In this document: positions 9,041-44,134 of the stretch, piece by piece
Position numbering within the stretch: the first letter of the stretch is position 1
Layout of the letters: each line of letters starts with the position of its first letter
From: an uncultured Spirochaetales bacterium
GTDB lineage: Bacteria > Spirochaetota > Spirochaetia > Sphaerochaetales > Sphaerochaetaceae
Length of the DNA: 47,185 nucleotides
Assembly: GCA_945947045.1 (NCBI GenBank)
Contig: CAMEXG010000001.1
Coordinates: forward strand, 1 to 47,185
Reading direction: 5' to 3'
Notes under the pieces: generated by a model
Database searches by the model: none
The model's input: only the letters and a program-made list of their open reading frames with translations
Told to the model about the DNA's origin: nothing
Translations under genes and position numbers: made by a program

Positions 9041-9826
9041 ATGTTGATGTTCGTCTTTTCTATCGTAGTGTTGGTAGCAACTATCGTAGGGTCAATAAGT
9101 GGTATCGGAGGAGGAGTCCTAATCAAGCCTGTAATGGACGCTTCTTTCCCTCTTACTACTTCCCAAATCAGCTTTTTAAGTGGAACCACAGTCCTCACAA
9201 TGACCATCGTATCGCTCCTAAGAAGCAGAAAGGACTTGAAGCTTGATTTAAGGACCCTCATGTTAGCCATAGGCGGAGCTGTGGGGGGAATAATAGGAAA
9301 ACAAATCTTCGATGTAGTAAAAAAAGCAGCCGGCAACGACGCCTTTGTAGGTCTTGTACAGAATATCATCATGGTGCTATTAACAGGTGCCGTCTTTGTT
9401 TATACTCTGAAAAAAGCAACTATCAAGACGAAGAACCTCAAGAACCCTGTATTCTCTTTGATCGTAGGTTTATTCTTAGGAGTATTATCTTCATTCTTAG
9501 GAATCGGAGGAGGACCAATCAACCTTATGGTTCTCTCTTATATTTTCTCCCTTGATACAAAGAATTCAGCTCTCGCTTCCTTGTTTATCATATTCTTCTC
9601 ACAGCTCTTCTCTCTTGTTTCTTCTGTTGTGACAAATACAATCCCGACCTTTGACTGGCCTATGTTATTGATGATGATGGCATGTGCAGTAATAGGAAGC
9701 ACACTGGGAAGAATGTTCTCCAAAAAGATGGACAACAAGGCTGTAGATAAACTCTTTATGGCTCTTATGGCTGTAATCATCGCCCTCTCAATCTATAACT
9801 GCATCAAATTTGGAATAAGTCTTTGA
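9041..9826 (+). CDS. TauE/SafE (TSUP) family anion exporter/permease
   Basis: 261 aa, about 8 TM segments, duplicated G-rich motifs (SGIGGGVLIKP / LGIGGGPINL) typical of TSUP. Confidence 0.8.
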   Translation: MLMFVFSIVVLVATIVGSISGIGGGVLIKPVMDASFPLTTSQISFLSGTTVLTMTIVSLLRSRKDLKLDLRTLMLAIGGAVGGIIGKQIFDVVKKAAGNDAFVGLVQNIIMVLLTGAVFVYTLKKATIKTKNLKNPVFSLIVGLFLGVLSSFLGIGGGPINLMVLSYIFSLDTKNSALASLFIIFFSQLFSLVSSVVTNTIPTFDWPMLLMMMACAVIGSTLGRMFSKKMDNKAVDKLFMALMAVIIALSIYNCIKFGISL

Positions 9827-9910: not shown

Positions 9911-11032
9911 ATGGAAAATGCTTTTCAACTTCTTCATAGAAAAGAGAAAGATATGCTCCTTGATATTGTAAAGGAGAAGACGATATCACGAACAGAGCTA
10001 CAGAAAAAATCAGATTTAAAAGTTGCAAACTTCTACAATACAGTGGACGACCTTTTGAAATATAAGCTTATAAAAAAAGATGAAGTTATTGTTACAGGAA
10101 AAAAAGGAAGGCCATCAGAGATCCTTTCTTTGAATAAAAGATACTGCTATACTTTGTATATCCTCATTACTGGAGAAGGATATTATCTGGGAGTATGTGA
10201 TCTTGAAGGTAACATCAATGAAGGAGAGCGCAATAAGATTACAGATAATCTTCACCTTCCTCTATTTCTCAGTAATGTTGAAAAATACTTCAAAGAGAAA
10301 TCCTGCTCTTATAACATCCAATATGTTACACTTGTCACAGGAGTAAATCCCAAAAGAAAGGAAATTGCATTCTCTTCATTCTTCGGAGTAGATATTGAAG
10401 ATGAACTCTACAAAATTACATCTCTTCCCGTTTATTCAGACTCCATAGCCCGTGCTGCGGCTCTTGGCATTTATAATGAACGATATAGTCAAGAGCATGT
10501 ATCTCTCGCCTTCTTCAACCTCGGGACAGGTATTGGAGTCGGTCTAGTACATGCTATGATTCCTGAAGAGTTTTGGTATAAAAACAGAATAGCTATTGGA
10601 CACTGGGAAATGGATCCTAACGGAAGAAAATGCAGATGTGGCAAAAATGGTTGCTTGATAACTACTCTTGGCTGCAACGACATTATAAGAAATGCTTTGG
10701 AATACAAAGAAGAAGGCACACATTCTTCTCTCAATGAAGGAGCAGATGTCCTTGATCTAATAAATGCTGCAAATAGTGGAGACCCTTGTGCAACGAAAGC
10801 TCTTGATGAGGCTGCAGTCTCCTTTGTAAAAGCAATGAGAATCATTTATAGCATTGTAAATTTTGATATAGCATCAATTGGTGGTCAACTTTGTCATGGC
10901 AACACTTACTTCTATACAAAAGTAAAAGAAGAGATAAAAGGTCTCCCTTTTACATTAGATATAGAAGAAAACTATATTCAAAAGACCAGTAAAGGTATCT
11001 GTTATAGACTTCTATTAGAGCTTCTATCTTAA
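9911..11032 (+). CDS. ROK-family transcriptional regulator (wHTH plus ROK sugar-binding domain)
   Basis: 373 aa. N-terminal winged-helix-like segment and the ROK zinc motif CRCGKNGCL. No SD before the ATG, so the start is uncertain. Confidence 0.75.
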   Translation: MENAFQLLHRKEKDMLLDIVKEKTISRTELQKKSDLKVANFYNTVDDLLKYKLIKKDEVIVTGKKGRPSEILSLNKRYCYTLYILITGEGYYLGVCDLEGNINEGERNKITDNLHLPLFLSNVEKYFKEKSCSYNIQYVTLVTGVNPKRKEIAFSSFFGVDIEDELYKITSLPVYSDSIARAAALGIYNERYSQEHVSLAFFNLGTGIGVGLVHAMIPEEFWYKNRIAIGHWEMDPNGRKCRCGKNGCLITTLGCNDIIRNALEYKEEGTHSSLNEGADVLDLINAANSGDPCATKALDEAAVSFVKAMRIIYSIVNFDIASIGGQLCHGNTYFYTKVKEEIKGLPFTLDIEENYIQKTSKGICYRLLLELLS

Positions 11033-11040
11033 GAAAAACT

Positions 11041-11796
11041 ATGAAACACGTAATCGAAAACCAATTTTTAATTGCTACCATTGATTGCAAAGGAGCACAG
11101 CTTCTCTCTTTAAAATCTAAAGAAAATGGCAAAGAATATATATGGACAGGAGATGAAAGCATTTGGAAGTGGCACGCTCCTGTTTTATTTCCACAGTGCG
11201 GAAACTTTCCAAACGGTTATTTCTACAATGGGAATAATTACAAGCTTCCTATGCATGGTTTCCTTAGAGATGTAGAACATACTTATCAGAGAGATGGAGT
11301 CTATATTTTTACTTCAGAGAAAAGGGAAGATTATCCTTTCTCTTTTAAAGCCCAAACAACCTTTACACTTAATAAACATACACTTACTCATTCAATTACT
11401 ATCACAAATCCATCTTCCTATCCTATGCCCATGTCTCTTGGTTTTCATACAGGGTACTTAATTAAGTCTCCGCTTCTTATATTTGAGAATACTGAAGAAG
11501 AAGTAGGTGGAAGGAAGTTTAAGTGCAATGACGCGACTCTCTCAGAAACTAAGTTATATACAAAGATCAAGTCCAGACGAATCAATGTGGAAGGAGAAGA
11601 GGGAAAAAGAATGGCTGTCTCTTTCTCCGACTGCACTACCCTTGTTATTTGGAGTCCAAAGGGTGAAAGTCGAAATCTAGTATGCATCGAACCCCGCATA
11701 GATACTATTCCTTCTGGTACAAAAGAACCCTTTGCTATTATGTTAAAAGGAAATGAGAGTATTACTCTCTCTGAAAGCATTGAAATAATAGAATAA
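11041..11796 (+). CDS. aldose 1-epimerase (mutarotase) family protein, short LacX/YihR-like form
   Basis: 251 aa. PVLFPQCG... and LPMHGFLRD motifs of the galactose-mutarotase-like fold. Starts 8 nt after the ROK gene. Confidence 0.65.
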   Translation: MKHVIENQFLIATIDCKGAQLLSLKSKENGKEYIWTGDESIWKWHAPVLFPQCGNFPNGYFYNGNNYKLPMHGFLRDVEHTYQRDGVYIFTSEKREDYPFSFKAQTTFTLNKHTLTHSITITNPSSYPMPMSLGFHTGYLIKSPLLIFENTEEEVGGRKFKCNDATLSETKLYTKIKSRRINVEGEEGKRMAVSFSDCTTLVIWSPKGESRNLVCIEPRIDTIPSGTKEPFAIMLKGNESITLSESIEIIE

Positions 11797-11859: not shown

Positions 11860-13353
11860 TCAGTGCATCAAAGTAAAGTCACCTGCGTGGCCGTTTGTAC
11901 CATCATAGACTTCGCCTTTCATTGAGAGGTGTACTGCACCTGTCTTGAATGTCAGAGGAAGAGCAAGGATGTTAGGGTTCTCAGGAAGATACTTTCTCAT
12001 TGCATCTGAGAGTGCTTCCTCGAATGTAGCCCTGGTCTTTAGACCCATGCCTCTTGCGATTCCCGGTTCCCTTGCGCCAACGATGTAGATGGCGGAAGTA
12101 TTCATCTCAGCAATATGGCCGCAGCTCATCATAGAGAAGCCGTGGAACGGATGGAATGCGTTGCAGAAGCGATACTTTCTGATGTACTCCTCGTTTGTTG
12201 CGAAGTACTCGCCGTATCTGTTCATATCAGGGAGAACGTTGTTGTAGTCATGCTGGAACATATTGTAGAGCTCCCTGAGGTATGGCCATCTCTCGTCATG
12301 GAAGTAGCCGTCGCAGATTGTGGATACGATGAATACACATCGGTCCGACATAACTCTCTTGTGTCTGATTACCTGAGCAGACAAGGCCTGCATCATCTGG
12401 ATCGGGTTTGTCCCCATTCCGTTTCCATAGTGGAAGTTTGTAGGCATGCCGAATACAATGCAGTCATACTTCTTCTCTGCAAACGGTACATATGTACGCT
12501 TGTCGGCGCATGCCCAAGAGACTGGCTGCATCTCCTTAGCGTATCCTGAGAAGATCGCTATCTGGCGTGAGGACGAGTCAAGGACTGCGTCTACGCAGAA
12601 GAACTTTTTCCCCATCTTCTCTTCCATGTACATACCCTGCTCGTCGAACTTGTTTCTCATTGTGCTTGTCCCGGAAACAGGTGTGAAGTCCTTTCTATGC
12701 ATTACGGATGGAACATGGTGGGCTGCGATGCTCCTCCAGTGTGTGATGCCGCAGGAACAGTGCTTATATCCACCGCTGTATCCGCCGTATGGGTTACCAG
12801 ATGTGTGACCGATCATGATGGCTACATCGGAGTCATAGACATACTTGTTCATGATCACGTGGTCGCCGCCCTCTGTATATCCAAGGTCCACCAGGTGCTC
12901 ATAGTCTTCACTGTCGTGGCTTGTGAGGAGACCGTATGGATAGAACTCGTTGAAGAGCTCCTCTCCAAGAATCTGCTTCATCTCCTTCTCCGTTGCACGT
13001 GGATGGAGTCCATTTGAGATGATTAGGAGAATGTCCTTCTTCTCTACTCCTACACTATATAGTTCGTCCAGGATACAGCGCATCGCAACCTTTCTGTGGC
13101 TCGTCTTCTGGCATCCACCCTTTACGATGTCAGGGATGATGATGGTGACCTTGCTTCCCTTATGGGCAAGCTCAGTGATAGTAGGCATTCCGATTGGATT
13201 CCTGATGGAGTCCATAGTAGCCTTATACAGGGAGTCCCAGTCCTGAGGAAGTGGTTCCGGATCCTTCACTGTCTCTCCTGGGATAAATACGTCTGTGTAA
13301 TCTGGGAGCTCGGCAGCCATTGTGCCTTCGCCATACTCAAAATTCAACTTCAT
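11860..13353 (-). CDS. LarA-like nickel-pincer-cofactor-dependent racemase/epimerase family protein (DUF2088)
   Basis: 497 aa. By-eye alignment to L. plantarum LarA matches NGLHPR (His108 region), GHTSGNPYGGYSGGYK (His174, and the SGGxK Lys184 cofactor tether) and IAAHH (His200 Ni ligand). The ATGA start overlaps the upstream stop, and AGGAG is 6 nt upstream of the ATG. Confidence 0.75.
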   Translation of the reverse strand: MKLNFEYGEGTMAAELPDYTDVFIPGETVKDPEPLPQDWDSLYKATMDSIRNPIGMPTITELAHKGSKVTIIIPDIVKGGCQKTSHRKVAMRCILDELYSVGVEKKDILLIISNGLHPRATEKEMKQILGEELFNEFYPYGLLTSHDSEDYEHLVDLGYTEGGDHVIMNKYVYDSDVAIMIGHTSGNPYGGYSGGYKHCSCGITHWRSIAAHHVPSVMHRKDFTPVSGTSTMRNKFDEQGMYMEEKMGKKFFCVDAVLDSSSRQIAIFSGYAKEMQPVSWACADKRTYVPFAEKKYDCIVFGMPTNFHYGNGMGTNPIQMMQALSAQVIRHKRVMSDRCVFIVSTICDGYFHDERWPYLRELYNMFQHDYNNVLPDMNRYGEYFATNEEYIRKYRFCNAFHPFHGFSMMSCGHIAEMNTSAIYIVGAREPGIARGMGLKTRATFEEALSDAMRKYLPENPNILALPLTFKTGAVHLSMKGEVYDGTNGHAGDFTLMH

Positions 13354-14186
13354 TTGTTTTCTCCTAGATATGTCTTGATGATTTCGATGTATTCGTCTGG
13401 ATAGAATCCGATTTCACCCTTAAAACGAGTAAGAGCAATTAGACCTCCATCAATTTCATCGATTGAAGCAAGCATTTCTGCATTGTCAGTCTTTAAACCG
13501 CCACCGTAAACTACAGCCAGACCGTCAGTCTCTTTCTTTACAAGCTTTGCAACCTTTGTGATGTAAGGCTTATCTGCAGGAGTCTTACCAGGGCCAATGG
13601 ACCAAACAGGTTCATATGCAATAGCTACTCTCTCTTTATCTGCACCCTCGAGTCCGATAGAGAGCTGTTCTTTTAGAACTTCATCCCAGTTATCCAGCTC
13701 TGTATCCTTTTCTCCGATACAATACAAAACTTTAAGACCAGCATTTTGTGCAGCAAGAATCTCTTTATTGAGAATTCTATTGACAGCCTTTGTATCGACG
13801 ACACCAGCTTCAGCCAGGATCGCAGCAAGCTTATTTCTCTCTTCGCAATGACCGATAAGGGCATATGAGCAGCCGAAAGAAACAGCAGCATTTCCTGTAA
13901 GGGAAGTAGTGAATGCACCAAATGGTCCACCTACCTTTGTGTCTCCCCAGAAAAGTCCCTGTGTTCCTACTTCAATCGGGCTGTCTTCTGTCTTGGCAGA
14001 GCAGGCAGGAATAAGGTGTGCTTCAGGGAAGAACATTGCAAACTCAGTATCTTTGAAAGCCTTAAGCTGCTCCTGTGTATTCTTGACGATGAATGAACCC
14101 CATTCTTTCGGATCAGATATGGAGTTTACTCCTCCCTTCTCTCTTGGAATATCAAATCTTTTAAGGTTTAAGTAAATGTGCTTCAT
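13350..14186 (-). CDS. triosephosphate isomerase family protein (divergent paralog type)
   Basis: 278 aa. The catalytic set is retained: NLK (Asn/Lys), LIGHCEE (His/Glu), AYEPVWSIGPGK (Glu). The signature motifs differ from housekeeping TpiA. Confidence 0.8.
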   Translation of the reverse strand: MKHIYLNLKRFDIPREKGGVNSISDPKEWGSFIVKNTQEQLKAFKDTEFAMFFPEAHLIPACSAKTEDSPIEVGTQGLFWGDTKVGGPFGAFTTSLTGNAAVSFGCSYALIGHCEERNKLAAILAEAGVVDTKAVNRILNKEILAAQNAGLKVLYCIGEKDTELDNWDEVLKEQLSIGLEGADKERVAIAYEPVWSIGPGKTPADKPYITKVAKLVKKETDGLAVVYGGGLKTDNAEMLASIDEIDGGLIALTRFKGEIGFYPDEYIEIIKTYLGENK

Positions 14187-14195
14187 ACACTCTCC

Positions 14196-15353
14196 TTATC
14201 TAAAGATTGCAAAATCTGGATGACTACCCATAAGTGGATCACAATAAGCGAAGAATTCATCGGAAATCTTATTTGTACCTTCAATCCACTGGAGAGGGAA
14301 CTTCTTTTCCACGTTTGCTACATCACATAGAGGCACAAGATCAAGAGAGAACTTGAAGCCGTCGGTTCTATCAGCGACAATAGATACCATGCTTCCTGTC
14401 TTTCCTGCGGCGGCAGCTTCAACAGCCTTCTTTCCGACTGCATATGCTTCTTCTCTGTCTACGTCTGACTGGTATGCGATTGAAGTTCTACCTACCAATC
14501 CAGGCTTCTCACTTCTGGACTTAAGACCAATTTTGTCCATAATCTGACGTGAGATGAACTCGCCTACGCCTCCTGCGACCTTGTGACCGAAGCCGTCTAC
14601 AATTCCGGTGTCTGCAAGAGGATTTCCATCCAAGCCACAGAGACCTTCACTTACTGTAACAAGGCATCCTCTTCCCTTGGCATATGCCTTCTCGATATCA
14701 GAAAGCATAACATTTACATCCACAAGTTTCTCAGGAAGGTATGTCAAGACTTCACAATTTGTAACCCTTGCGGCCAAAGCAGAAGCAGCTGTAACCCAAC
14801 CTGCGTTTCTTCCCATAAGTTCCAGAACTACTACATGGATAGGAAGACCGTTTGCATCAAGGGCAAGCTCAGATGCGTTGATAGCGGCATAACGAGCTGC
14901 GGATCCAAAGCCTGGACAGTTATCTGTAAAAGCAAGGTCGTTGTCCATAGTCTTTGGTATTCCGATCACCTGAAGATCCAAGCCTTCTTTTTCTGCAAGG
15001 ATAGAAATCTTATTACAAGTATCCATACTATCGTTGCCACCGTTGTAGAAGAAAACACCGATGTCATTCTTCTTCATACACTCGATTACAGCGGGATAAT
15101 CCTTATCACTGAGCTTTCTTCTGCAGCTGCCGATGGCAGTTGCAGGAGTATGAGAAAGCTTACCTACAGTAGAAGACGGAATATTTGTCAAATCCAAAAG
15201 GTCATTCTTTAAGATTCCTTCGGCACCGAACTTAGCACCTAAAATCTTATTAAAGCCCCCGTTGATTCTAGCTGTTTCGATGACACCCTGAAGAGATGTA
15301 TTGATTACAGCTGTGGGACCGCCACCATGGGCGACAAGTATATTCTTTCCCAT
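14196..15353 (-). CDS. phosphofructokinase (PfkA) family sugar-phosphate 1-kinase, with a PPi-type signature
   Basis: 385 aa. GGNDSMDT, IGIPKTMDNDL and LMGRNAG motifs. The Asp in GGxDS and the Lys in PKTxDND are the classical PPi-PFK markers. Confidence 0.85.
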   Translation of the reverse strand: MGKNILVAHGGGPTAVINTSLQGVIETARINGGFNKILGAKFGAEGILKNDLLDLTNIPSSTVGKLSHTPATAIGSCRRKLSDKDYPAVIECMKKNDIGVFFYNGGNDSMDTCNKISILAEKEGLDLQVIGIPKTMDNDLAFTDNCPGFGSAARYAAINASELALDANGLPIHVVVLELMGRNAGWVTAASALAARVTNCEVLTYLPEKLVDVNVMLSDIEKAYAKGRGCLVTVSEGLCGLDGNPLADTGIVDGFGHKVAGGVGEFISRQIMDKIGLKSRSEKPGLVGRTSIAYQSDVDREEAYAVGKKAVEAAAAGKTGSMVSIVADRTDGFKFSLDLVPLCDVANVEKKFPLQWIEGTNKISDEFFAYCDPLMGSHPDFAIFR

Positions 15354-16510
15354 TAGATACCTGCCTTCTTATATCTTTCAGCCATTTCATCAAGTGTTAC
15401 ACATTCGATGAGAGGAGCCTTACCATAGGAACCGAACTGAATGATGAGGGAGCCTACAGCTTCCTTGACACCAGCTTCCATTCTCTCGAAAAGTAATCTT
15501 GTATCGTCATCATTGATGTTTCCATACATGACTGCATCCATTACTGGTGGCAGGAACACTCTTGGGTCGAAAGCAGATGGGTTCTTTACCATAAGTTCAT
15601 AAACAGGTCCGATAGAAGGACTATTCTTCAATGACGGCTTGTCTCTGAAGAGTTCACGGAAGTTTCTTGTAACAGCAAGGCGGATATCTGTATCAACGTT
15701 GATCTTTCCGATTCCACACTTGGCAACTTCCTGAAGCTGCTCGATCTTGATTCCATAAGCGTTCTGAACGTCTCCGCCAAGAGCGTTAATTTCCTTTACG
15801 ATATACTGAGGAACAGTTGAAGAACCATGGCTGACGAGAACACCGTCGATTCCTTCATGTCTCATGCACTCTTTTGTTGCAATAGCGATCTCTTTTCTGA
15901 TGACTGTGTTTGCGCCCTTATTTGCACCATGCTTTGTACCATAAGAGATGGCAAGAGCATCAACCTTTGTCTTCTTGAAGAATTCGATTGCATCCATTGG
16001 GTTTGTGTAAGTGCTTGTAGCAGCAAAGACATGGTCCTCGACACCTGCGAGAACTCCAAGTTCACCTTCTACTGTTACACCTCTTTCGTGTGCATATTTT
16101 ACGACTTCTCTTGTAAGCTCGATGTTTTCCTTGAAAGGAAGAGAAGAACCATCGATCATGACAGATGTATATCCACCTTCAATGGCAGCCTTACAAGAAT
16201 CGAAGTTCTTACCATGGTCAAGGTGAAGAGCAACAGGAATCGGGGAATCGACAGCATACTTCTTGACTGCCTCTGCAATGTTTCTTGCTCCAACTTTCTT
16301 GTCTTCAAGAGTTGCGTTCTGGAAGTCTGTCCTTCCACCCATGAAGCCGTTTGCAAGGTCTGCACCCTGAAGAATGGCTGCACTTCTGAACATTTCGTGG
16401 ACTTCAATGACTGCCTTTGCCTGAGCAACTGCGTTAACGTTGAATGCACCCTGAGCATAGCAATATTTGTCTGTTGCATCGAGGATGGCTTTCATAGGTA
16501 CTAATGACAT
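15353..16510 (-). CDS. class II (metal-dependent) fructose/tagatose-bisphosphate aldolase family protein
   Basis: 385 aa. The HLDHG, EGELG, YGTKHG and SHGSS metal/catalytic motifs are all present. AAGGAG RBS at 16519-16524. Confidence 0.85.
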   Translation of the reverse strand: MSLVPMKAILDATDKYCYAQGAFNVNAVAQAKAVIEVHEMFRSAAILQGADLANGFMGGRTDFQNATLEDKKVGARNIAEAVKKYAVDSPIPVALHLDHGKNFDSCKAAIEGGYTSVMIDGSSLPFKENIELTREVVKYAHERGVTVEGELGVLAGVEDHVFAATSTYTNPMDAIEFFKKTKVDALAISYGTKHGANKGANTVIRKEIAIATKECMRHEGIDGVLVSHGSSTVPQYIVKEINALGGDVQNAYGIKIEQLQEVAKCGIGKINVDTDIRLAVTRNFRELFRDKPSLKNSPSIGPVYELMVKNPSAFDPRVFLPPVMDAVMYGNINDDDTRLLFERMEAGVKEAVGSLIIQFGSYGKAPLIECVTLDEMAERYKKAGI

Positions 16511-16666: not shown

Positions 16667-18130
16667 TCACCAATTAATCTTCTTAGGTTGCTTCTTACTT
16701 GACACCATCTCTTCCGGATAGTGACGAGCACAGTCAGGAGCATGCCATCGTTCATCAGAATCAAAAGAACAACGCATTGTAATAGAGAGGTTTTGTTCCT
16801 CTTTCTTTGCATTTTCAACTATTTTTTCAAAGCTTTCACACTTTTCATCCAATAAAGATACCGCTTCTTTTGCAAACTCAGAATAAGAAGAAATTATATT
16901 TTCCGTTTCATGAGGATCTTTCTCTATATCGAAAACCTCTTCTTTATCTGAAGTGCAATATCTGACATATTTAAGGCTACCCTTCTTTACCATCTGGGCA
17001 TATGGAACACTATGTGTATTTCTATCCATAGCACCACCAAGTTCAGAGATCACCATTCTCTTTTTATCATCATACTCCTCTGTAAGTTGCTTTTTAAGGC
17101 TGACTCCATCTGAGCCATATGCAATGGGTGCGTCTACTAGATCACAGAGAGTAGGTCCTAGATCGATAAGGCTTGTAGCTCCTTCGATCTTTACGTTCTT
17201 TCTTATTCCGTCACCGGCAATTATAAGAGGCGTATGTACGGACTCTTCGAAAAATGTCTGCTTACCATACAGACCTCTTGATCCTATTTGATCTCCATGA
17301 TCTGAAGCATAAATAAAGATTCCTTCATGTCCTGTACGTCTCAAATACTCTTGGAAAGCGTCATATACCATACCGACTTCCATGTCTGTGAACTCACACA
17401 TAGCGTAGTATGCCGCTCTGACAGCTTTCACTACTTCAGGGTCTTTATCATTGAAGACACCTTCATAGAATGATGGAAGAGGATAATCCACATCGTCTTC
17501 TCCGCTGACTCTTTCGTAATAATAGTCGTAAAGTTCCTTTGGAGCTACATAAGGATGATGGGGTGCATATGTTCCGACACATAGAAACTGTGGTTTTTCA
17601 TAGCTATCCTTCAGATAATCCAAAGCATGCTCTACAACATATCTATCGAACTCAAGAGTAGGAGAATTGCCTGCCCCAATTATTGAAATACAGTGAGCCC
17701 CGCCTGTAGGAGTATTGAGATGAACTCCCCTCTCTTTTTTAAAGGCTTCGGTCGGTCTGTTTGTATATATCGGAGTTATATCTCCTGCAATACGCTTTGA
17801 AAAACCATGTCTCTGGTCAGGGCCTACAAAGTGCATTCTTCCACACAGCACCGTCTCATAGCCGATGCTGTTCAGGCTATGGGCGAAAGTAGCACGTGAA
17901 GAATCAAGAACACTGAAGTTTCCCATTACTCCGCACTTAGAGGCTAACTGTCCTGACATCAGACTCATTCTGGCAGGGACGCAAAGCGGATAAGGAGTGT
18001 AGTTATTCATAAATGCTACACCCTCCGAAGCGATTCTATCTAAGTTTGGAGTTCTCAAGATTCCATTTCCAACATAGTGTTGCTGGAGAAAGGCATGTTG
18101 GTCAGAAAAAAACAAACAAATATCTTTCAT
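16667..18130 (-). CDS. Cys-type (formylglycine) sulfatase, no signal peptide
   Basis: 487 aa. Sulfatase signature PLCVPARMSLMSG (C-x-P-x-R). The N-terminus MKDICLFFSDQH has no hydrophobic leader. Confidence 0.85.
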   Translation of the reverse strand: MKDICLFFSDQHAFLQQHYVGNGILRTPNLDRIASEGVAFMNNYTPYPLCVPARMSLMSGQLASKCGVMGNFSVLDSSRATFAHSLNSIGYETVLCGRMHFVGPDQRHGFSKRIAGDITPIYTNRPTEAFKKERGVHLNTPTGGAHCISIIGAGNSPTLEFDRYVVEHALDYLKDSYEKPQFLCVGTYAPHHPYVAPKELYDYYYERVSGEDDVDYPLPSFYEGVFNDKDPEVVKAVRAAYYAMCEFTDMEVGMVYDAFQEYLRRTGHEGIFIYASDHGDQIGSRGLYGKQTFFEESVHTPLIIAGDGIRKNVKIEGATSLIDLGPTLCDLVDAPIAYGSDGVSLKKQLTEEYDDKKRMVISELGGAMDRNTHSVPYAQMVKKGSLKYVRYCTSDKEEVFDIEKDPHETENIISSYSEFAKEAVSLLDEKCESFEKIVENAKKEEQNLSITMRCSFDSDERWHAPDCARHYPEEMVSSKKQPKKINW

Positions 18131-27843: not shown

Positions 27844-29109
27844 TTATTTTCCTAAAAGCTTAAACATGTCCTTCTTATAGTCTTCAACACCATTCTGATC
27901 AAAAGGATTTACTCCTGTGATATTGCATGAAACATAGCAGGCCATCTGGAAGAAATAGAAAAGAGCGCCATAAGTCTCTTCATCGAAACGAGGAATCTCC
28001 AAAACAAGGCATGGGAATCTTCTTGAGTGAGCGGCAAGAGTTGCGTTAAATGCAGCTTTATTGATTTCCCAAAAATCTTTTCCATCAAGATATTTGAAGC
28101 CATCTTCCAATTCATCACTTGGAAGCGGACAAGTAGATTCTCTTTCCGTTACATTCAAAAACGTCTCGAAAAGCATTGGGGAACCATCCTGGACAAACTG
28201 TCCTAAAGAATGCAGATCCTCACTATATGAAGTATCCATCGGCAATAAGCCCTTATCTTCCTTTCCTTCACTTTCACCGAAAAGCTGTTTCCACCACTTT
28301 GCAAATCTAAAGAATCTGGGTTCGAAATAAGAAAGAAGTTCTACACTCTTCCCTTTTTCTTTTAGCATAGTGCGCATTGTGGCATATTCGAGGGCGACAT
28401 TTAATATTGAATGATCGCTTTTGAGTCTACTCTCCATATCTTTTGCACCCTTAACCATAGCTTTAATATCAAAACCTGCAACAGCAAGAGGGAAAAGACA
28501 GATGGGAGAGAGCGCCGTATATCTACCGCCAATATTCGAAGGGAAAGGAAGAAGTGTATAACCCTCCTTTTCAGCCATATTCCAGGAAGGCGTATTCTCT
28601 GTAAAAGTAACGATTACTCTTGAAGAGTAACTATCCCCATATCTTTTATCCAAGAAGTTCCTGATAACTCTGAAAGCAATACCAGGCTCCAATGTCTCAA
28701 AGTTTTTGGCGATACAATCCACATAGACGCTTTTCTTGTTCTCCAAAGATTTTAATACTTCGTTCATTGAATATGGGCTTATAGTATTTCCTGCCCATAT
28801 TATTTCAACATCATTCTTCCGTCCCAATGCCTCGTATACAGCTCTGGCTGCCTGGTTTGAACCGCCAATACCTATGACAACCAAGGCATCTGCATCTTTC
28901 CTTACTCTTAAGGCAGTCTCTTCATACTTTTCCAGCCATTCTTCTCCAGCCCAAAGAGATACATTGTGCCAACCGAGAGTATCTTTATACTTCTCCTCTC
29001 CTTTCAGAGCTCTATCTAGGGAAGGAAGGTTTCTTTCTAGTCTTGCTTTATATTCCTCTTTCCCGATTAATCCCGAATTATCTACATACTTAAAGTTTAT
29101 ATCCGTCAT
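27844..29109 (-). CDS. glucose-6-phosphate isomerase family protein (short Firmicute-type PGI), with an atypical phosphate loop
   Basis: GIGGS, IGGRYTALSP, WWKQLFGESEGK, DLHSLGQ and NPFDQNGVEDYKK signatures are present. The canonical SKSGTT/SKTFTT loop reads AKNFET. Confidence 0.8.
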   Translation of the reverse strand: MTDINFKYVDNSGLIGKEEYKARLERNLPSLDRALKGEEKYKDTLGWHNVSLWAGEEWLEKYEETALRVRKDADALVVIGIGGSNQAARAVYEALGRKNDVEIIWAGNTISPYSMNEVLKSLENKKSVYVDCIAKNFETLEPGIAFRVIRNFLDKRYGDSYSSRVIVTFTENTPSWNMAEKEGYTLLPFPSNIGGRYTALSPICLFPLAVAGFDIKAMVKGAKDMESRLKSDHSILNVALEYATMRTMLKEKGKSVELLSYFEPRFFRFAKWWKQLFGESEGKEDKGLLPMDTSYSEDLHSLGQFVQDGSPMLFETFLNVTERESTCPLPSDELEDGFKYLDGKDFWEINKAAFNATLAAHSRRFPCLVLEIPRFDEETYGALFYFFQMACYVSCNITGVNPFDQNGVEDYKKDMFKLLGK

Positions 29110-35723: not shown

Positions 35724-36725
35724 TTAGTTGTGTGCAGCTTCAAGCATGATGTCAAAGAGGACGTAGTTCTCAACTGGAGTTGTAGGATCAACTGCATCAC
35801 CGAATGCAAGCTTCTGAACTTCATAGAGAGCCTTGATAGAACCATCTTTGATTCCGTTGATTGTATCTGCTTCTGTATACCACTTTGCACCATGGACTGT
35901 CTGATACTGAATCTCAACGTCACCTGCAACCTGCTTAGCAACCCATTCAGCAACCTGTCTCATGTTCTCTTCCTTTGCTCTGAAGTCTTCACCCTTATAG
36001 AGTGCTCTTGTGAACTTGACAAGTGTATCGTGGTTAGCTTCAGCCCACTTTGGCATGACGATCCAAGAAGCGATGTTGACTGTCTCGTCAGAGAATGTTT
36101 CGTTTCTAGCGATTACAACAGCATCGGAACCGATCTGAGAGCACATTGTTTCTGTTGATGGTGACCATGTAGCACATGCATCGAGAGAACCAGATGTCAT
36201 AGCAGATGTGAGAGAAGAAGCATCCATTTCGTAAGCTGTGATGTCATTCATAGTGAGTCCAGCTTTCTTAAGACCGAGCATGAGGATGTTCTCTGAAGAT
36301 GTTCCTGAAGAATAACCGACTTTCTTTCCTCTGAGGTCAGCGAGAGATTCTACACCATGAGACTTGAGACCGACGATAGCGTCACCGTTTCCAAGGTGAG
36401 AGAATGCGAAGATGGAAGCACGACCATTGATACAAAGCTTATGAGCGCCATGTCCGATGTATCCGATATCGATAGAGCCGGATTCCATAGCAGCGATGAT
36501 AGTAGGACCGTCTGCGAATTCAACAAGGTTAACCTTGAGGCCTTCTTCTTCGAAAGCGCCTGTCTCAATTGCAGCCATTACGGAGCAGAGAGATGCATAG
36601 TTTGGCATATATGCAACGTTGAGAGTCTTGAGAGAAGAAGTTGTTGCCTTTTCTTCTGCTCCCTGAGCGAAAATGCCTGTAAGAGCGATGACTGCTACCA
36701 AAAGAATAGCGATTGCCTTTTTCAT
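35724..36725 (-). CDS. NitT/TauT-family (NMT1/SsuA-like) ABC substrate-binding protein
   Basis: Signal peptide MKKAIAILLVAVIALTGIFAQG. 333 aa with an SsuA/ThiY-like pattern. Confidence 0.8.
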   Translation of the reverse strand: MKKAIAILLVAVIALTGIFAQGAEEKATTSSLKTLNVAYMPNYASLCSVMAAIETGAFEEEGLKVNLVEFADGPTIIAAMESGSIDIGYIGHGAHKLCINGRASIFAFSHLGNGDAIVGLKSHGVESLADLRGKKVGYSSGTSSENILMLGLKKAGLTMNDITAYEMDASSLTSAMTSGSLDACATWSPSTETMCSQIGSDAVVIARNETFSDETVNIASWIVMPKWAEANHDTLVKFTRALYKGEDFRAKEENMRQVAEWVAKQVAGDVEIQYQTVHGAKWYTEADTINGIKDGSIKALYEVQKLAFGDAVDPTTPVENYVLFDIMLEAAHN

Positions 36726-36765
36726 TTTATATCTCCTTTTTTTGTTTTCAAAAATGTGGTTCCGA

Positions 36766-37557
36766 TTATTTTCTTACCTCAAGGTATTCATGATATACCT
36801 GAGACCAAATCTGGTTCTTAAGCTCCAAGAATCTTGGGCTCATCTTTGTCTCCTGATCACGTGGATAAGGAATATCTACATCGATGATATCCTTGATTCT
36901 TCCTGGTCTAGCGGACATTATGACGACTCTTTGACCAAGGATGAGGGCTTCGTCGACATCGTGGGTGATGAAGAAGCAAGTCTTTCTTTCCTTTTCCCAT
37001 GTCTCCAACAACTCCTGCTGAAGCTGAGTTCTTGTCTGAGCATCCAAAGCTCCGAATGGCTCGTCCATCAATAAGACTTCAGGATTTGCAGCATAAGCAC
37101 GAGCGATTGCGACTCTCTGCTTCATACCGCCACTGAGTTCCTTTGGATAGTGGTCGCAGAACTTCTCAAGATCAACCATCTTGATGTACTTCATTGCGAT
37201 ATCTTCTGCTTCCTGCCCCTTTATTCCTTTCATCTGAAGTGGGAAGAGGACATTCTTCTTTACTGTGAGCCAGGGAAAGAGTGCATACTGCTGGAATACG
37301 ACACCTCTATCTGGACCTGTTCCATGGACTTCCTTTCCATTACAGATGATCTTTCCGCTTGTAGGCTCCAAAAGACCAGCCATAATATTGAGGATTGTAG
37401 ACTTTCCGCAACCAGATGGACCGACGACAGTAATAAACTCGTTGTCCATAATATCCAGGTTTACACCGTTGAGAGCTACTACCTCACCAGTTCTTCCCTG
37501 ATATGTCTTCTTAACGTTCTCAATGTGAACTTTTATATTTCTCTCTTCTCCTGCCAT
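36766..37557 (-). CDS. NitT/TauT-family ABC ATP-binding protein
   Basis: Walker A GPSGCGKST, LSGGMKQRV, Walker B LLMDEPFGALD. 263 aa, SsuB/TauB-like size. Confidence 0.9.
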   Translation of the reverse strand: MAGEERNIKVHIENVKKTYQGRTGEVVALNGVNLDIMDNEFITVVGPSGCGKSTILNIMAGLLEPTSGKIICNGKEVHGTGPDRGVVFQQYALFPWLTVKKNVLFPLQMKGIKGQEAEDIAMKYIKMVDLEKFCDHYPKELSGGMKQRVAIARAYAANPEVLLMDEPFGALDAQTRTQLQQELLETWEKERKTCFFITHDVDEALILGQRVVIMSARPGRIKDIIDVDIPYPRDQETKMSPRFLELKNQIWSQVYHEYLEVRK

Positions 37558-38324
37558 CCTGTCAACTTCCTTTCAAGTAATTGTATAAGCTTCTCAACTG
37601 TGATTCCGATGATACCGATGATGATGATATATAGAAGCATCGGAGCTGTTTCGAAGTTGTTGTTAAGTGATCTGATTCTCATTCCCAATCCAGCGAATGC
37701 ACCTGTAGATTCTGCGGCGATAAGTGTCGTGAGGGCACAAGAAGCACCGAGACGTACAGCTGTAAGAATGAATGGAAGAGATGCTGGAGCAAGAACGCGA
37801 AGGAAGATATCCTTATCTTTAGCTCCAAGGACTCTTGCTGCCTTAATAAGCGTCTCGTCAATGTTTACGATTCCCTGATACATTGTGATACACATAATGA
37901 GACAGGTTGCGATTGTAATGACGATGATCTGTGGTTTTCTTCCTACTCCTGCTGCGATGACAATGAGCGGAACATAAGCAAGAGGTGGTATGTTTCTGAT
38001 GAACTGAATCCATGGCTGGATAATTCTTCTTACAGGATTATACCAAGCCATAAGAATAGCCAATGGAAGTGCAATGACAAAACCAAGGGCATATCCAGCA
38101 CTTACAGAGATAAGAGAAGAAGAAATATCCTTCCAAAGAACGCCTCTCTGAATCATGACACCAATCTGCTTAAAGACGACGAAGATATTGGGGAATGAAC
38201 GTGCAGTAGCCGGCAACACTGATAAAAGTGTCCAAAGTGCTAGAGCACAAAGTAAAGAAATACCGAGCCAAATCCAATTTGTAAGTTTCTCGTTGGTTTT
38301 GCCTCCCTTTAGCTTTGCAGCCAT
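37533..38324 (-). CDS. NitT/TauT-family ABC permease
   Basis: 263 aa, 6 TM segments, EAA loop (LIKAARVLGAKDKDIFLRV). Confidence 0.85.
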   Translation of the reverse strand: MAAKLKGGKTNEKLTNWIWLGISLLCALALWTLLSVLPATARSFPNIFVVFKQIGVMIQRGVLWKDISSSLISVSAGYALGFVIALPLAILMAWYNPVRRIIQPWIQFIRNIPPLAYVPLIVIAAGVGRKPQIIVITIATCLIMCITMYQGIVNIDETLIKAARVLGAKDKDIFLRVLAPASLPFILTAVRLGASCALTTLIAAESTGAFAGLGMRIRSLNNNFETAPMLLYIIIIGIIGITVEKLIQLLERKLTGWQEKREI

Positions 38325-38412: not shown

Positions 38413-39906
38413 CTAATTGAAATAGACGGGACTAAGGAATGCCACGCTTCCGTTCTTCTGGAATATTTCCATATGGTAGAAAGCATTACCCTTAATATCG
38501 TCTTCTACTTCCCCTTCTATTCTGTATAAACTTTCTCCAATAGCTTGATGAACTTTGAAGGAAGGAGAGTTTGTAATTCCAACAGGGTAACAGAACGAGT
38601 TGTTTAGTAGATCTCTTATTTTCAATCTCACTTCCCTATCATTAACTTTGATAGACAGAAGAGTATCAAGAGAACCGTCGATCTCCATTACGACCATGGA
38701 TGTAGAAGGTGTGGTAGGATTAATATTCTTTGCGGTCTGTACTCTACCTTCCAAATGGTCATCACTAATAATACTTGCCCTGTTATCGATGACATTGCAG
38801 TCCTCTGGTACTTCTACTCCTTCTTGTGGAGCCAATACACTCTTACCTCTGAAACACTTTTCAAGAGAAGAAAACTTCCCGTTTTCAAGCTTTACATCAA
38901 AGTCCCAGGTAAGGAGATCTTTCTTTCCACCCCAGCCGAATTCAAGTCTTACTTTGTATTTTCCTTTTTCGTTGACTACTCTGAAACTCTCACCATTTAT
39001 TACAGCTATAGGCTCCAGATTTCTGTAGATTACAGCTTTGTCCAACAAATATGACAGATCCATTTTATAGTGGACGGTATGATGGCTTATAGAAGATGAG
39101 ACTTTATCACCCATAATAAAACCATCTACATCAAAGAATGCTTTGATCTTGTCTCCACTGAGTGCATACGTATGACGTTTTTTAATAGCGTCGATGATGC
39201 TGGACCTATCGTTATTATCAGCAAGGACACATAAACACCCGTCACCATAGGAACCAGGATAACCTGCGTGATGGTCCGTAGAACCTACAAAGCCAAATTG
39301 TCTCCCCTTTTCCAGTCCCCTATATACAGTGTTCCTACTGTCTCTGCCTCCCATATTGTGGTAATAAGGGAAAGGATGAGAATCGCTCATGGAGCATCCA
39401 TGCTTACTTATCACCTCGACCACAGGGAAAAGAGAATCATCATATTCATCCCAGTTTATTCCCCTGTATTCAGGAGCATAGGCAATGTGATGGGGAATGA
39501 TCACTGTATCTTTATACCCTTTCGTCTCTTCATAGAATTCTCTAGGAGTCTTTGCATCTGTCAGCAACGGAATTGAAGTATCCCCAGAGACAATATGATG
39601 GTCTCCAAAGTGATGAGAGTGCATCTCATAACCTATAAACGTAGTGAACTCGCCCTCTTTATTGTACTTCTCGAAGATAGCTTTGTTTCCTTCATAGTTA
39701 CCTTTCAGCTTGGCAAAACCTTTCTTGTGGAATGCAACCAGGAACTCTGTATCCGGGGTTACAGGTGGGATATCTGGCCAGAAAGCGTGTCCTGTCACCG
39801 CAACAAAGTCCAAGTGGCTCCTAGCGTTCACAAGTGCATTCTCCAAGCTTCCATAGCCATATGAAATACCACAGTGATCATGAATATCTCCAAATAGATA
39901 TTTCAT
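38413..39906 (-). CDS. PHP-domain / DUF3604-like metal-dependent hydrolase with a C-terminal beta-rich domain
   Basis: His-rich PHP-type motifs GDIHDHCGISYG, VAVTGHAF, YEMHSHHFGDHH, IIPHHIAY, GSTDHHAG. No signal peptide. The ATGA start overlaps the nagA stop. Confidence 0.6.
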   Translation of the reverse strand: MKYLFGDIHDHCGISYGYGSLENALVNARSHLDFVAVTGHAFWPDIPPVTPDTEFLVAFHKKGFAKLKGNYEGNKAIFEKYNKEGEFTTFIGYEMHSHHFGDHHIVSGDTSIPLLTDAKTPREFYEETKGYKDTVIIPHHIAYAPEYRGINWDEYDDSLFPVVEVISKHGCSMSDSHPFPYYHNMGGRDSRNTVYRGLEKGRQFGFVGSTDHHAGYPGSYGDGCLCVLADNNDRSSIIDAIKKRHTYALSGDKIKAFFDVDGFIMGDKVSSSISHHTVHYKMDLSYLLDKAVIYRNLEPIAVINGESFRVVNEKGKYKVRLEFGWGGKKDLLTWDFDVKLENGKFSSLEKCFRGKSVLAPQEGVEVPEDCNVIDNRASIISDDHLEGRVQTAKNINPTTPSTSMVVMEIDGSLDTLLSIKVNDREVRLKIRDLLNNSFCYPVGITNSPSFKVHQAIGESLYRIEGEVEDDIKGNAFYHMEIFQKNGSVAFLSPVYFN

Positions 39907-41027
39907 TTATCCTCCTTTTCAAAGACTACTTCTCCTCCTACAATAGTCTTCATCACTTCATTTTCTTTCGAAAGAACTACCATATCAGCCCTCTTCCCCA
40001 CTTCAAGAGCCCCTCTATCAGAGAGTCCCATCATATTTGCCTGGTTAAGAGAAAGAATTCTCCATAAAGTTTCAGGACCCAGTCCTGTAAACTTAATTAG
40101 GTTTCTCAATGCTTTATCGAGAGTAAGGGTAGAGCCAGCCCTGACACCATTTCTAAGCTTTGCGTCTCCGTCCTTTACCACAACGTCATTTACACCCAGC
40201 TTATACTCTCCGTCAGGAAGACCTGCAGCCATAATAGAGTCAGTAATGGCCACAACTTTATCCAGACCCTTTGTTTTGAGAACCAATCTTACTGTTCCAG
40301 GATGAAGATGAAAGCCGTCTGAAATAATCTCAGTATAAACTTGGTCGCTTTCAAGGGATGCCCCGGATATAGCTGGTCGATGCATATGAAATAGCTTCAT
40401 TGCATTAAAAAGGTGTGTAGCAGATGTCACTCCATTCTCTATGGCTTCCAATGCTGTTTCATACTCTGCACTGGAGTGTCCCATGGAGACTACAACACCC
40501 TTTCGTCTGAGAGAAGAAATAAAAGGCATGGCACCCTCTCTCTCTGGAGCGATTGTGATATATGAAATATGACCACGGGAAGCTGTAAAATATCTATCAA
40601 ACAACTCTGGATCGGGATCCACTATCAGCTCTGAAGGCATGGAACCTTTATATTCATCTGATAGGAAAGGCCCTTCCAGATGAATTCCTACTAGCTGAGC
40701 TCCCTTCAACTTCTTTTCCCTTGCCTCTCCCAATACTTTAAGGCACTTTACCATGCTCTCCTCTGTATCGGTGACAAGAGAGAGCTGAACAGATGTAACA
40801 CCATGAGAAGCATAGAAGGAGGAGAGTCTCTCCACATCTTCCATACTCTCAATATGGTTTACATCCATTCCTCCACCGCCGTGGGTATGGACATCAATAA
40901 AGCCAGGAAGAATAAGAGGATAGTTTCCGTCTTCAATCTCCTTAATGCTCTTTATTTTTTCTCCCTCTGTCTCAATTTCTACACTGATAAGTCTTGAATT
41001 AAAGGGAATCTTTCCAAAAAGTGTCAT
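39903..41027 (-). CDS. nagA: N-acetylglucosamine-6-phosphate deacetylase
   Basis: 374 aa amidohydrolase: GFIDVHTHGGGG, HLEGPF, THLFNAM. Confidence 0.9.
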   Translation of the reverse strand: MTLFGKIPFNSRLISVEIETEGEKIKSIKEIEDGNYPLILPGFIDVHTHGGGGMDVNHIESMEDVERLSSFYASHGVTSVQLSLVTDTEESMVKCLKVLGEAREKKLKGAQLVGIHLEGPFLSDEYKGSMPSELIVDPDPELFDRYFTASRGHISYITIAPEREGAMPFISSLRRKGVVVSMGHSSAEYETALEAIENGVTSATHLFNAMKLFHMHRPAISGASLESDQVYTEIISDGFHLHPGTVRLVLKTKGLDKVVAITDSIMAAGLPDGEYKLGVNDVVVKDGDAKLRNGVRAGSTLTLDKALRNLIKFTGLGPETLWRILSLNQANMMGLSDRGALEVGKRADMVVLSKENEVMKTIVGGEVVFEKEDK

Positions 41028-41842
41028 TAAAAAGCCCTCTCTGAAGCGATATTATTTGTAAGAATCAATGCATCAGGATGGTTCTGCAACAAGGTTACAG
41101 GGAAGTGTCCGCTAGGCTCGTCAAAGATAGCCTGTCTGACTACAGCCCTATGCCAAGGTCTGAATACACCAAGAACAACCTTTCTTGCTTCTATTATTTC
41201 TTTGATTCCGATTGTCACTGCATATACAGGCATAGCATCTATGGCGCCATTAAGGTCACCGATGGCATTGGCACATCTTGTTTCTCTCGAGATAGCAAGG
41301 ACTCTCGTATCACGGGTAGCAAACTCTTCTGCAGATACTTCTTCAGCCTCATTAAAAGCAAGATGCCCGTTTATTCCGATTCCTCCGAAGCAGATATCTA
41401 CGCCGCCGAGTTCCTCGATCTTTTTTCCTACACTCTCTGGATTCTTTGGATCTGGAAAGAATCTCTGAGACTCAGGTACGTTAAGTTCCTCTGGAATCTG
41501 GGAGTAGACTTCTCTCTCCATAAAACCACGGAAAGAGAGAGGAGAAGATGAGTCGATGTATTCTTTATCATCTGTCAAATACTCGTCCATGTTGAAGAAC
41601 CAACAATTAGCGAGAGAAAGATTCCTCTCTTTTACAAGCCTTACAAATATCGGGTACTGTCCCACTGGTCCTACTGGGCATATAAATACAGTTTTCTTTC
41701 CTTTTTTGTTATTCTCTTCAATTGTATCCACCATGATGTGGGCAATCTCAGAAAAGACTTCACCGCTATCTCCCAGACATTTGACAGGGATTCTTCCCTC
41801 TCCCAGTCTTTCTTTAGGATATGAATAATATTTTTTGTCCAT
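41027..41842 (-). CDS. nagB: glucosamine-6-phosphate deaminase/isomerase family protein
   Basis: 271 aa. The NagB/6-PGL fold pattern includes FFNMDEY, GGIGINGHLAFNE. TAATG junction with nagA. Confidence 0.82.
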   Translation of the reverse strand: MDKKYYSYPKERLGEGRIPVKCLGDSGEVFSEIAHIMVDTIEENNKKGKKTVFICPVGPVGQYPIFVRLVKERNLSLANCWFFNMDEYLTDDKEYIDSSSPLSFRGFMEREVYSQIPEELNVPESQRFFPDPKNPESVGKKIEELGGVDICFGGIGINGHLAFNEAEEVSAEEFATRDTRVLAISRETRCANAIGDLNGAIDAMPVYAVTIGIKEIIEARKVVLGVFRPWHRAVVRQAIFDEPSGHFPVTLLQNHPDALILTNNIASERAF

Positions 41843-43428: not shown

Positions 43429-44134
43429 TGAGGGAAACGATAAAGCCTCTACCTTGGATAGGAAGTCTGATGCTCTTTATTTCCTCTCTCACTCTATCTT
43501 CCACCACATCTCCCCCATTAAATAAAAACACATTCTTTGTGTCCCTCTTCATACCTTTTCTCATACCTTGTGGAGTGGAAGAGAGATAATCGAAATAGGA
43601 CTTATCCACATAAATACCTGTCCTGTCATCACCGAAGACAGTGTCTTCAACTCTTTTTCCATAGGCCCAAAGGCCTGCAATAGATACAACAGAAGTGGTA
43701 GGGGGCCATATTACAGGATCCCTCTCCGTATGTATTTTCAATGGAAGTCGCCTTGAACCGTCTGATTCAACGATTATCACGTCATATCTCTCATACAATA
43801 AAGAGACTATAGATTCCGGAGGCGCTACAGTCTTACCCAGCCTATCATTGTATTCTCCATAGAAGACGCTCTCACCTTTTCCCGGCCAATATGAAAGAAT
43901 GTCTGGAGAGAGAAAGACATGATCCGCTTTATAATCAAAGGAATAGGGAGAAGCCAGCTTTGTACTTGTAGTCATAAGCACGGAATATCCTCTGTTCTTT
44001 AAAAACGAGGAGAAAGAAACAAGAAATGTAGTCTTTCCTCCTCCGCCTGTTACACTGATAAATCCTCTGCCATTGTCAATAAGAATCTTTTCCAGTGTCT
44101 CCCATAGTTTTTCAGCCATACCCGATATTATCAT
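43400..44134 (-). CDS. yqeC: YqeC-family putative selenium-dependent hydroxylase accessory protein (P-loop)
   Basis: 244 aa. ISVTGGGGKTTF P-loop and a VESDGS motif characteristic of the YqeC family. Confidence 0.7.
   Translation of the reverse strand: MIISGMAEKLWETLEKILIDNGRGFISVTGGGGKTTFLVSFSSFLKNRGYSVLMTTSTKLASPYSFDYKADHVFLSPDILSYWPGKGESVFYGEYNDRLGKTVAPPESIVSLLYERYDVIIVESDGSRRLPLKIHTERDPVIWPPTTSVVSIAGLWAYGKRVEDTVFGDDRTGIYVDKSYFDYLSSTPQGMRKGMKRDTKNVFLFNGGDVVEDRVREEIKSIRLPIQGRGFIVSLNEDKIYESL

Follow-up and report, generated by a model that had tools for sequence, protein, structure and literature searches.

The stretch analysed here (the window) comprises 47,185 nucleotides of contig CAMEXG010000001.1, from an uncultured Spirochaetales bacterium of the Sphaerochaetaceae (assembly GCA_945947045.1). 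It carries a gene for a divergent enzyme of the triosephosphate isomerase (TIM) fold, which we call TIM*, and directly downstream of it a gene for LarA17, a single-histidine homolog of the nickel-pincer (NPN) enzyme LarA. All coordinates given for the window are positions within it, and those of the features are collected in Table 1. The TIM* gene has an AGGAG ribosome-binding site located 6 nt upstream of its ATG, and its stop codon overlaps the LarA17 start codon in the sequence ATGA at 13350-13353. Around these two genes stand paralogs of glycolytic and amino-sugar enzymes, together with transport and sulfatase genes.

TIM* and LarA17 as a conserved pair

The Pfam TIM domain (PF00121) is found in TIM* with 115 bits (cut-off 20), and the protein scores only 64-88 bits with the NCBIfam TpiA equivalogs, the cut-offs of which lie at 130-883. 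An AlphaFold2 model built with the family alignment as input (pLDDT 95.4, pTM 0.93) has the same (beta/alpha)8 fold as TpiA (EC 5.3.1.1). The top 50 Foldseek matches to this model are all canonical TIMs, with TM-scores of ~0.75 and 21-26% identity, and no solved structure of the TIM* subfamily is among them. At the sequence level TIM* differs from TpiA much more, with identities of only 21-31%.

We aligned TIM* with E. coli TpiA (from NC_000913.3) and with TIMs from the PDB. This alignment bears out every motif comparison made in the first-pass annotation of this DNA. GNWKLN of TpiA reads LNLKRF in TIM*, with Asn and Lys retained; IGHSERR reads IGHCEER, with His and Glu retained; AYEPVWAIGTGK reads AYEPVWSIGPGK, with the catalytic Glu retained; and in loop 7 YGGS reads YGGG, a single change from Ser to Gly (S211G in chicken/yeast numbering). 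The catalytic Asn7, Lys9, His113 and Glu192 are all in place and are common to TIM* and TpiA. In loop 8, DGALVGGASLK reads DGGLIALTRFK. Here the replacement of the Gly-Gly pair stands, but the weight laid on the new Arg was overstated, because that residue, present in 35/37 members of the close TIM* subclade, is variable in the wider family. As the same annotation had remarked, TIM* is also longer than a housekeeping TIM (278 aa vs 255 aa in E. coli TpiA). The additional length consists of insertions within loops 1, 3, 4 and 8, so that loop 8 is not only substituted but also 5-6 residues longer than in TIM.

TIM* and TpiA do not differ in the length of the loop-6 lid and share its core, YEPxW.IG.G. 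Within the lid, TIM* reads IGPGKTP and is altered at two positions involved in lid closure (T172P and A176P equivalents). Moreover, HSERR has become H(S/C)EER, with loss of the Glu97 equivalent. In TIM, closure of the lid involves hydrogen bonds from Tyr208-OH to Ala176-NH and from Ser211-OG to Gly173-NH; judging from the substitutions, neither could form in TIM*. In the predicted structure, strand beta8 spans residues 247-250, ending at Ile250, and is followed by 12 loop residues before helix 8, which would place Ala251-Leu252 at the positions of TIM Gly232-Gly233. The phosphodianion gripper of TIM, which is made up of YGGS in loop 7, Gly-Gly in loop 8 and the closure partners in loop 6, is not present in TIM*.

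These replacements are themselves conserved. A search of 5.8 billion proteins returned hundreds of close relatives of TIM* (67-99% identity), hosted by Sphaerochaetaceae, Lachnospiraceae (e.g., Blautia hansenii) and Oscillospiraceae, and an exhaustive search of representatives returned full-length family members down to 36-48% identity. Among species-representative genomes there is a gap in identity, with clade members at 48-95% and all other sequences at or below 36%. For conservation we used 37 TIM* clade members vs 42 canonical TIMs, plus a 40-sequence family alignment. In 37-40 TIM* homologs from several phyla, Asn7, Lys9, His113 and Glu192 vary little or not at all. The same is true of the motifs NLKRF, GNFGAFT, H(S/C)EER, IGPG(K/R)TP and YGGGLK, a loop-1 insertion with GG(V/I)(N/C), and the loop-8 region DGGL(I/V)ALTxF...IGF. 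Since the replaced residues are invariant or nearly so across phyla, they represent a selected state and reflect neither decay nor chance. TIM* is, as first suggested, a catalytically intact and conserved paralog instead of a decayed copy, and the conservation of the loop 6, 7 and 8 replacements also sustains the idea of a re-engineered anion handle site. TIM* amounts to an experiment by nature on the most thoroughly studied of enzyme lids, in which the gripper and the closure hydrogen bonds have been replaced and the catalytic tetrad kept.

The partner, LarA17, scores far below the cut-offs of all named LarA subfamilies in NCBIfam. It is a close member of LarA 'Group 17', matching PDB entries 9Q3J (LarA_Bw; E 3e-247) and 9Q2U/9Q3K (LarA_Sp; E 1e-237). 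Group 17 proteins form octamers with covalently bound NPN, have Asn in place of the second catalytic His, and show no lactate racemase activity (Gatreddi et al. 2025, bioRxiv 10.1101/2025.08.19.671153). In LarA_Sp, the same study found density reaching the active-site entrance and a 316.5-Da adduct of unidentified nature. According to these authors, genes close to those of Group 17 encode PFK, PGI, an aldolase and a 'triose phosphate isomerase'. The first-pass annotation had held the operon to be undescribed, which has to be narrowed: the glycolysis-type neighbourhood was already noted by Gatreddi et al., with TIM* listed as a plain triose phosphate isomerase, and it is the divergence and the role of this TIM that went unremarked.

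The key fact missing from that annotation is the near-obligate pairing of the two genes. LarA17 directly follows TIM* across ~42 loci, including those in which TIM* is only ~44% identical, with a single exception (locus L098, described below). Among 201 Lachnospiraceae-type genomes (one Firmicutes family), 16 have both genes and 185 have neither, and the genes are adjacent in 15/16 of the double carriers. From this perfect co-inheritance we infer that the two enzymes act together. TIM* is, then, the co-inherited, translationally coupled partner of an orphan single-histidine LarA subfamily. One Lachnospiraceae-type genome (G079) has two TIM* copies (C45:1819-2637 and C285:18763-19506) and a single LarA17 match.

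Tight coupling and co-inheritance of the genes would also be expected if TIM* were a non-catalytic scaffold or chaperone of LarA17. To this idea we attach almost no credence, given that neither the four catalytic residues nor the sequence of the active-site lid varies between phyla, and that LarA_Bw and LarA_Sp form octamers and load NPN without TIM*. A prediction of the complex of LarA17 with TIM*, both entered as alignments, scored 0.00, which has no bearing either way on binding.

Separation from housekeeping TpiA and from EryH

The genome that contains the window also encodes a bona fide bifunctional Pgk/TpiA (897 bits vs a cut-off of 883), in which the canonical motifs are all present and to which TIM* is 31% identical. 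Separate housekeeping PFK and FBA genes are found in the same genome. TIM* is a divergent paralog and not the housekeeping TpiA of this genome. In a tree computed with IQ-TREE from 85 rows, 38 of them TIM*, and with SH-aLRT support, the TIM* sequences form one clade (support 100) on a stem of ~1.5 substitutions per site, apart from the housekeeping TIMs. Moreover, no TIM* gene occurs in a gap-pgk-tpi context, and at nearly all loci TIM* stands with LarA17.

A true isomerase of dihydroxyacetone phosphate (DHAP) and glyceraldehyde 3-phosphate (GAP), that is, a second TpiA dedicated to the operon and having an unusual loop 8, would fit the intact catalytic tetrad and the partial retention of the Gly-rich loops 6 and 7. 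An aldolase makes DHAP, which must become GAP, and both public annotation and Gatreddi et al. call the protein a triose-phosphate isomerase. However, a housekeeping TIM was present in all carriers examined, and TIM* lies far under every TpiA equivalog cut-off. The universally conserved Gly-Gly, Ser and lid-closure partners are gone, and perfect co-inheritance with LarA17 would be needless for a generic TpiA. Together with the parallel loss of phosphate sites in the neighbouring PGI* and NagB* (see below), these observations make a second TpiA very unlikely.

EryH (TpiB) and LerI resemble TIM* in being TIM paralogs of dedicated sugar operons that keep the catalytic residues and have altered substrate recognition, and an EryH/LerI-type identity had been raised for TIM*. 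As EryH references we took three sequences from plasmid-borne ery-type loci of Rhizobium (R. leguminosarum), Roseibium and Paracoccus; plasmid-borne loci were used because the Rhizobiaceae genome of locus L063 has a single TIM. In R. leguminosarum the gene order is FGGY kinase, G3P-DH-like, TIM-barrel EryC, regulators, TIM and RpiB, and the Roseibium and Paracoccus copies sit in a DeoR-TIM-RpiB arrangement. In the tree, these EryH sequences form a clade of their own (support 100), nested among ordinary TIMs and 11 nodes from the TIM* stem; their tree distance to the TIM* of the window is 4.8-4.9, vs 3.4-3.6 for ordinary TIMs. EryH also keeps YGGS, has GRSAW in loop 8 and stands beside DeoR and RpiB, whereas TIM* has other motifs and partners. 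The separate clades, 11 nodes apart, rule out TIM* as a tetrulose-phosphate isomerase of the EryH/LerI type, and the suggested identity has to be given up; TIM* is therefore neither TpiA nor EryH. None of the erythritol/threitol genes (EryA kinase, EryB dehydrogenase, EryC, RpiB/EryI) occurs in the window, and RpiB is near TIM* only in minority contexts (loci L006 and L098).

A putative sugar pathway of paralogs around the module

Clustering of the genes around 37 TIM* loci gave the recurrent neighbours listed in Table 1, and the complete set is present in the window. In 25/37 loci, one or more of SsuA, TauE and sulfatase is found no further than 10 kb from TIM*. No conserved C6 sugar kinase (hexokinase or NagK) was found across the 37 loci.

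Table 1. Features of the window and their recurrence beside TIM*
Feature	Position	Strand	Loci with this neighbour	Remarks
TauE/SafE-family anion exporter	9041..9826	plus	7/37	beside the module; also in L098
ROK-type regulator	9911-11032	plus		divergent from the operon
Aldose-1-epimerase-like protein	11041-11796	plus		divergent from the operon
LarA17	11860..13353	minus		single-His NPN LarA homolog, 497 aa; by PDB match and alignment
TIM*	13350..14186	minus		divergent TIM-fold enzyme, 278 aa; by Pfam, alignment, tree and AF2 model
PFK*	14196..15353	minus	26/37	PFK-family kinase paralog (PRK14072 type); GGNG replacing GGDG
FBA*	15353..16510	minus	21/37	class II ketose-bisphosphate aldolase paralog, 385 aa; Zn ligands retained
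Sulfatase	16667..18130	minus	6/37	choline-sulfatase-like; directly upstream of FBA*
PGI*	27844..29109	minus	11/37	PGI paralog; phosphate loop rewritten
SsuA/NMT1-type ABC importer	35724..38324	minus	17/37	binding protein, ATPase and permease; beside the module
PHP/CehA-McbA-like metallohydrolase	38413-39906	minus		497 aa
NagA*	39903-41027	minus	16/37	adjoins NagB*
NagB*	41027-41842	minus	12/37	anion loop shortened; adjoins NagA*
YqeB, YqeC	41902-44134	minus		selenium-dependent molybdenum cofactor maturation
LacI			16/37	

The neighbourhoods are of three types, based on an aldolase (the window and most loci), on AraD and RpiB (L006), or on transaldolase, FBA, Rpe and RpiB (L098). All three can release one and the same C3 product, glyceraldehyde with a distal handle. 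In L006, a Sphaerochaeta variant (L006:12348-14398), two genes for 340-aa proteins come after TIM*-LarA17, and behind them those for an AraD-like protein and RpiB. Neither 340-aa protein has a match in Pfam or NCBIfam, both being GH5-like by language-model features only, and there is no kinase in the L006 cluster. In L098 (L098:6887-13462), TIM* is divergent, at 36% identity, and the place of LarA17 behind it is taken by a set of E1alpha-E1beta-E2-E3 genes, like those of pyruvate dehydrogenase or acetoin dehydrogenase. A class II aldolase precedes this TIM*, and nearby are a 440-aa transaldolase-family protein, TauE, RpiB, two Rpe-like genes and a zinc alcohol dehydrogenase. The E1-E2-E3 set may provide another route for disposal of the TIM* product.

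The presence of RpiB in the L006-type and L098 contexts could point to a different reaction, in which TIM* shifts the carbonyl of a C4-C6 ketose (phosphate or sulfate) and LarA17 acts as an epimerase, in the manner of the EryC/EryH/EryI trio. Known TIM paralogs do so beside RpiB (EryH, on tetrulose phosphates), the ligand density in LarA_Sp suggests a long substrate, and the catalytic face bears four insertions by which the TIM* pocket could be widened. Nevertheless, TIM* is phylogenetically unrelated to EryH and most loci lack RpiB. In the main context, moreover, there is a dedicated paralog for each hexose-level step, leaving over only a C3 fragment, and in the model Ala-Leu would fill the handle pocket instead of opening it. 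We therefore consider a carbonyl shift on a longer ketose possible but rather unlikely.

The distal phosphate site is rewritten not only in TIM* but also in two further isomerases, PGI* and NagB*. In PGI*, the phosphate loop ISKSGTTTEP has become IAKNFETLEP. In NagB*, the PTG(S/G)(S/T)P loop is two residues shorter and the equivalent of Lys208 is Val. FBA* retains, along with its Zn ligands, the equivalents of both Arg residues that bind the 6-phosphate in fructose-bisphosphate (FBP) aldolases (DPR and DTDxR), and has Ala for Ser at the Ser61/Ser49 position. In the sulfonate-specific SqiA aldolases, one of those Arg residues is replaced and another pocket is used (PMC10665668). Retention of both Arg in FBA*, one of which SqiA has lost, would favour a handle of phosphate-ester length, a length that suits an O-sulfate more than it suits a C-sulfonate or carboxylate. 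As read from its residues, this site does not tell sulfate from phosphate, and argues only against sulfonate or carboxylate. FBA* also carries a conserved C-terminal extension of ~50 aa, which is missing from E. coli FbaA and from the housekeeping class II aldolases of the genome.

Compared with E. coli PfkA, PFK* keeps MGR and the Arg243/Arg252 equivalents and has Arg162 changed to His and His249 to Leu. Because these positions differ among the housekeeping copies too, the 6-phosphate site of PFK* is uninformative on the handle. A separate feature of PFK* is that GGNG/GGND replaces the Mg-binding Asp motif GGDG/GGDD of PFK, invariantly in 27 orthologues, and that the Lys of the PKT motif of pyrophosphate-type enzymes is present; PFK* may use another phosphoryl donor than PFK or even catalyse another reaction.

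The context of TIM* follows the logic of sulfoglycolysis. In sulfo-EMP as well as sulfo-EMP2, two pathways of sulfoquinovose, a sulfur oxyanion replaces the 6-phosphate, and mutarotase, isomerase, 1-kinase and aldolase lead to DHAP and a C3 sulfo-aldehyde, with a TauE-type exporter (PMC9594981, PMC10665668). Here, too, distal phosphate sites have been replaced and a conserved C6 kinase is lacking. The enzymes differ, however: paralogs of PGI, NagB, PfkA and an FBP-type class II aldolase are found here, whereas sulfoglycolysis uses YihS/SqvD, pfkB-type kinases and YihT/SqiA. FBA* has the Arg that SqiA lost and not the sulfonate-type pocket, and the NagA and NagB paralogs point to an amino sugar. 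The C3 aldehyde would be handed, in our proposal, to TIM* and LarA17 and not to an NAD(H) reductase or dehydrogenase. No sulfoquinovosidase, YihS/SqvD, pfkB-type sulfofructose kinase or sulfolactaldehyde reductase/dehydrogenase is found among the window genes.

Proposed role of the module and competing explanations

We propose that TIM* forms an enediolate on a C3 aldehyde with a sulfate-type handle and that the product passes to LarA17, a reading to which we give about an even chance. TIM* would use Asn7, Lys9, His113 and Glu192 to make an enediol(ate) from an alpha-hydroxy carbonyl, and would no longer grip a phosphodianion. Its substrate would come from a 'shadow' sugar pathway, which would split or rearrange a sugar bearing a non-phosphate distal anionic handle. 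The enzymes of this pathway would be the paralogs of NagA, NagB, PGI, PFK and class II aldolase, or, in other hosts, transaldolase, RpiB or AraD-type enzymes. TIM* would act on the three-carbon aldehyde left over, for which its intact enediolate machinery and rebuilt handle site would make it a natural catalyst, and LarA17 would take over the product as the second enzyme of a two-gene module. The most likely substrate of TIM* is D-glyceraldehyde 3-O-sulfate, derived from 6-O-sulfated N-acetylglucosamine (GlcNAc) or glucose, with sulfolactaldehyde as a less probable candidate. A step able to release a C3 aldehyde precedes the module in every case, so that the search for the LarA17 substrate narrows to a handful of compounds. 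The module may also mark an undescribed use of sulfated host or dietary sugars (e.g., mucin GlcNAc-6-sulfate) without prior desulfation, a route that would concern Lachnospiraceae, Oscillospirales and Sphaerochaetaceae of gut and rumen.

Several observations weigh against this proposal. The link to sulfur is contextual, and in 12/37 loci none of SsuA, TauE and sulfatase lies within 10 kb. The Arg residues retained in PFK* and FBA* would suit phosphate equally, and across the wider family alignment no new invariant cation appears at the TIM* handle site. The density and the 316.5-Da adduct of LarA_Sp hint at a partner substrate larger than C3. In the literature searched (sulfoglycolysis with TIM, GlcNAc-6-sulfate with NagA/NagB, and GlcNAc-6S cross-feeding), the pathway is not described and we found no mention of the proposed intermediates. 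Finally, LarB and LarC were not found in three Sphaerochaetaceae carriers of LarA17 (the window genome G000, and G002 and G003 of loci L011 and L012), and no LarE reaches the cut-off in the window genome, which is 76% complete. This gap, as seen from the gene content, makes activity of the module in the host of the window less certain. The LarA17 proteins of these Sphaerochaetaceae still have the NPN-anchoring Lys and the Ni-binding His, and Firmicutes carriers do possess LarB and LarC, which in Mobilisporobacter lie a few kb from the module. The Sphaerochaetaceae carriers either scavenge the cofactor or have the missing genes in DNA that was not assembled.

The loci without sulfur-related neighbours would be easier to understand if the C3 logic held and the handle were not sulfur-based, being either a carboxylate (tartronate semialdehyde and hydroxypyruvate interconverted, from 2-acetamido-uronic acids) or neutral (glyceraldehyde or lactaldehyde). 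LarA classically acts on 2-hydroxy acids, LarA17 has Lys at the position of the carboxylate-binding Arg, and the SsuA/NMT1 and TauE/TSUP families are not limited to sulfur compounds. Yet sulfatases, SsuA and TauE recur in the majority of loci, as counted above, and there are no uronate-pathway genes near TIM* among those of the window. Moreover, the Arg pair of FBA* suits a handle of phosphate-ester length, and a sulfonate, shorter by one atom, already forced a change of pocket in SqiA. A carboxylate or neutral handle is thus quite unlikely in our view.

A variant of the sulfate-handle proposal assigns TIM* a different chemistry and is speculation that we regard as unlikely. TIM* would be an enediolate-forming lyase, expelling sulfate from glyceraldehyde 3-sulfate (or sulfite from sulfolactaldehyde) to give methylglyoxal, and LarA17 would convert the methylglyoxal to lactate. 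Elimination would ensue because the lid and the gripper, which stop TIM from expelling its leaving group, have been lost. LarA17 would act as a hydride shuttle, from the C1 hydrate to NPN and on to C2, by way of a pyruvate plus NPN-H state as in lactate racemase, and a single catalytic histidine would be enough. Such a lyase would explain the dismantled lid and gripper, the single His of LarA17 and the fact that the genes are not separated. If true, the module would be a glutathione-independent, nickel-dependent glyoxalase, with which gut anaerobes would complete a glycolysis that desulfates sulfated sugars of the mucin type.

Two further features of the window adjoin the NagA*/NagB* genes. 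Directly upstream of that operon are YqeB and YqeC; no Mo enzyme is visible within the window. The PHP/CehA-McbA-like metallohydrolase, which has a weak DUF3604 match, is translationally coupled to NagA*/NagB* and could be a hydrolase for a sulfo-sugar.

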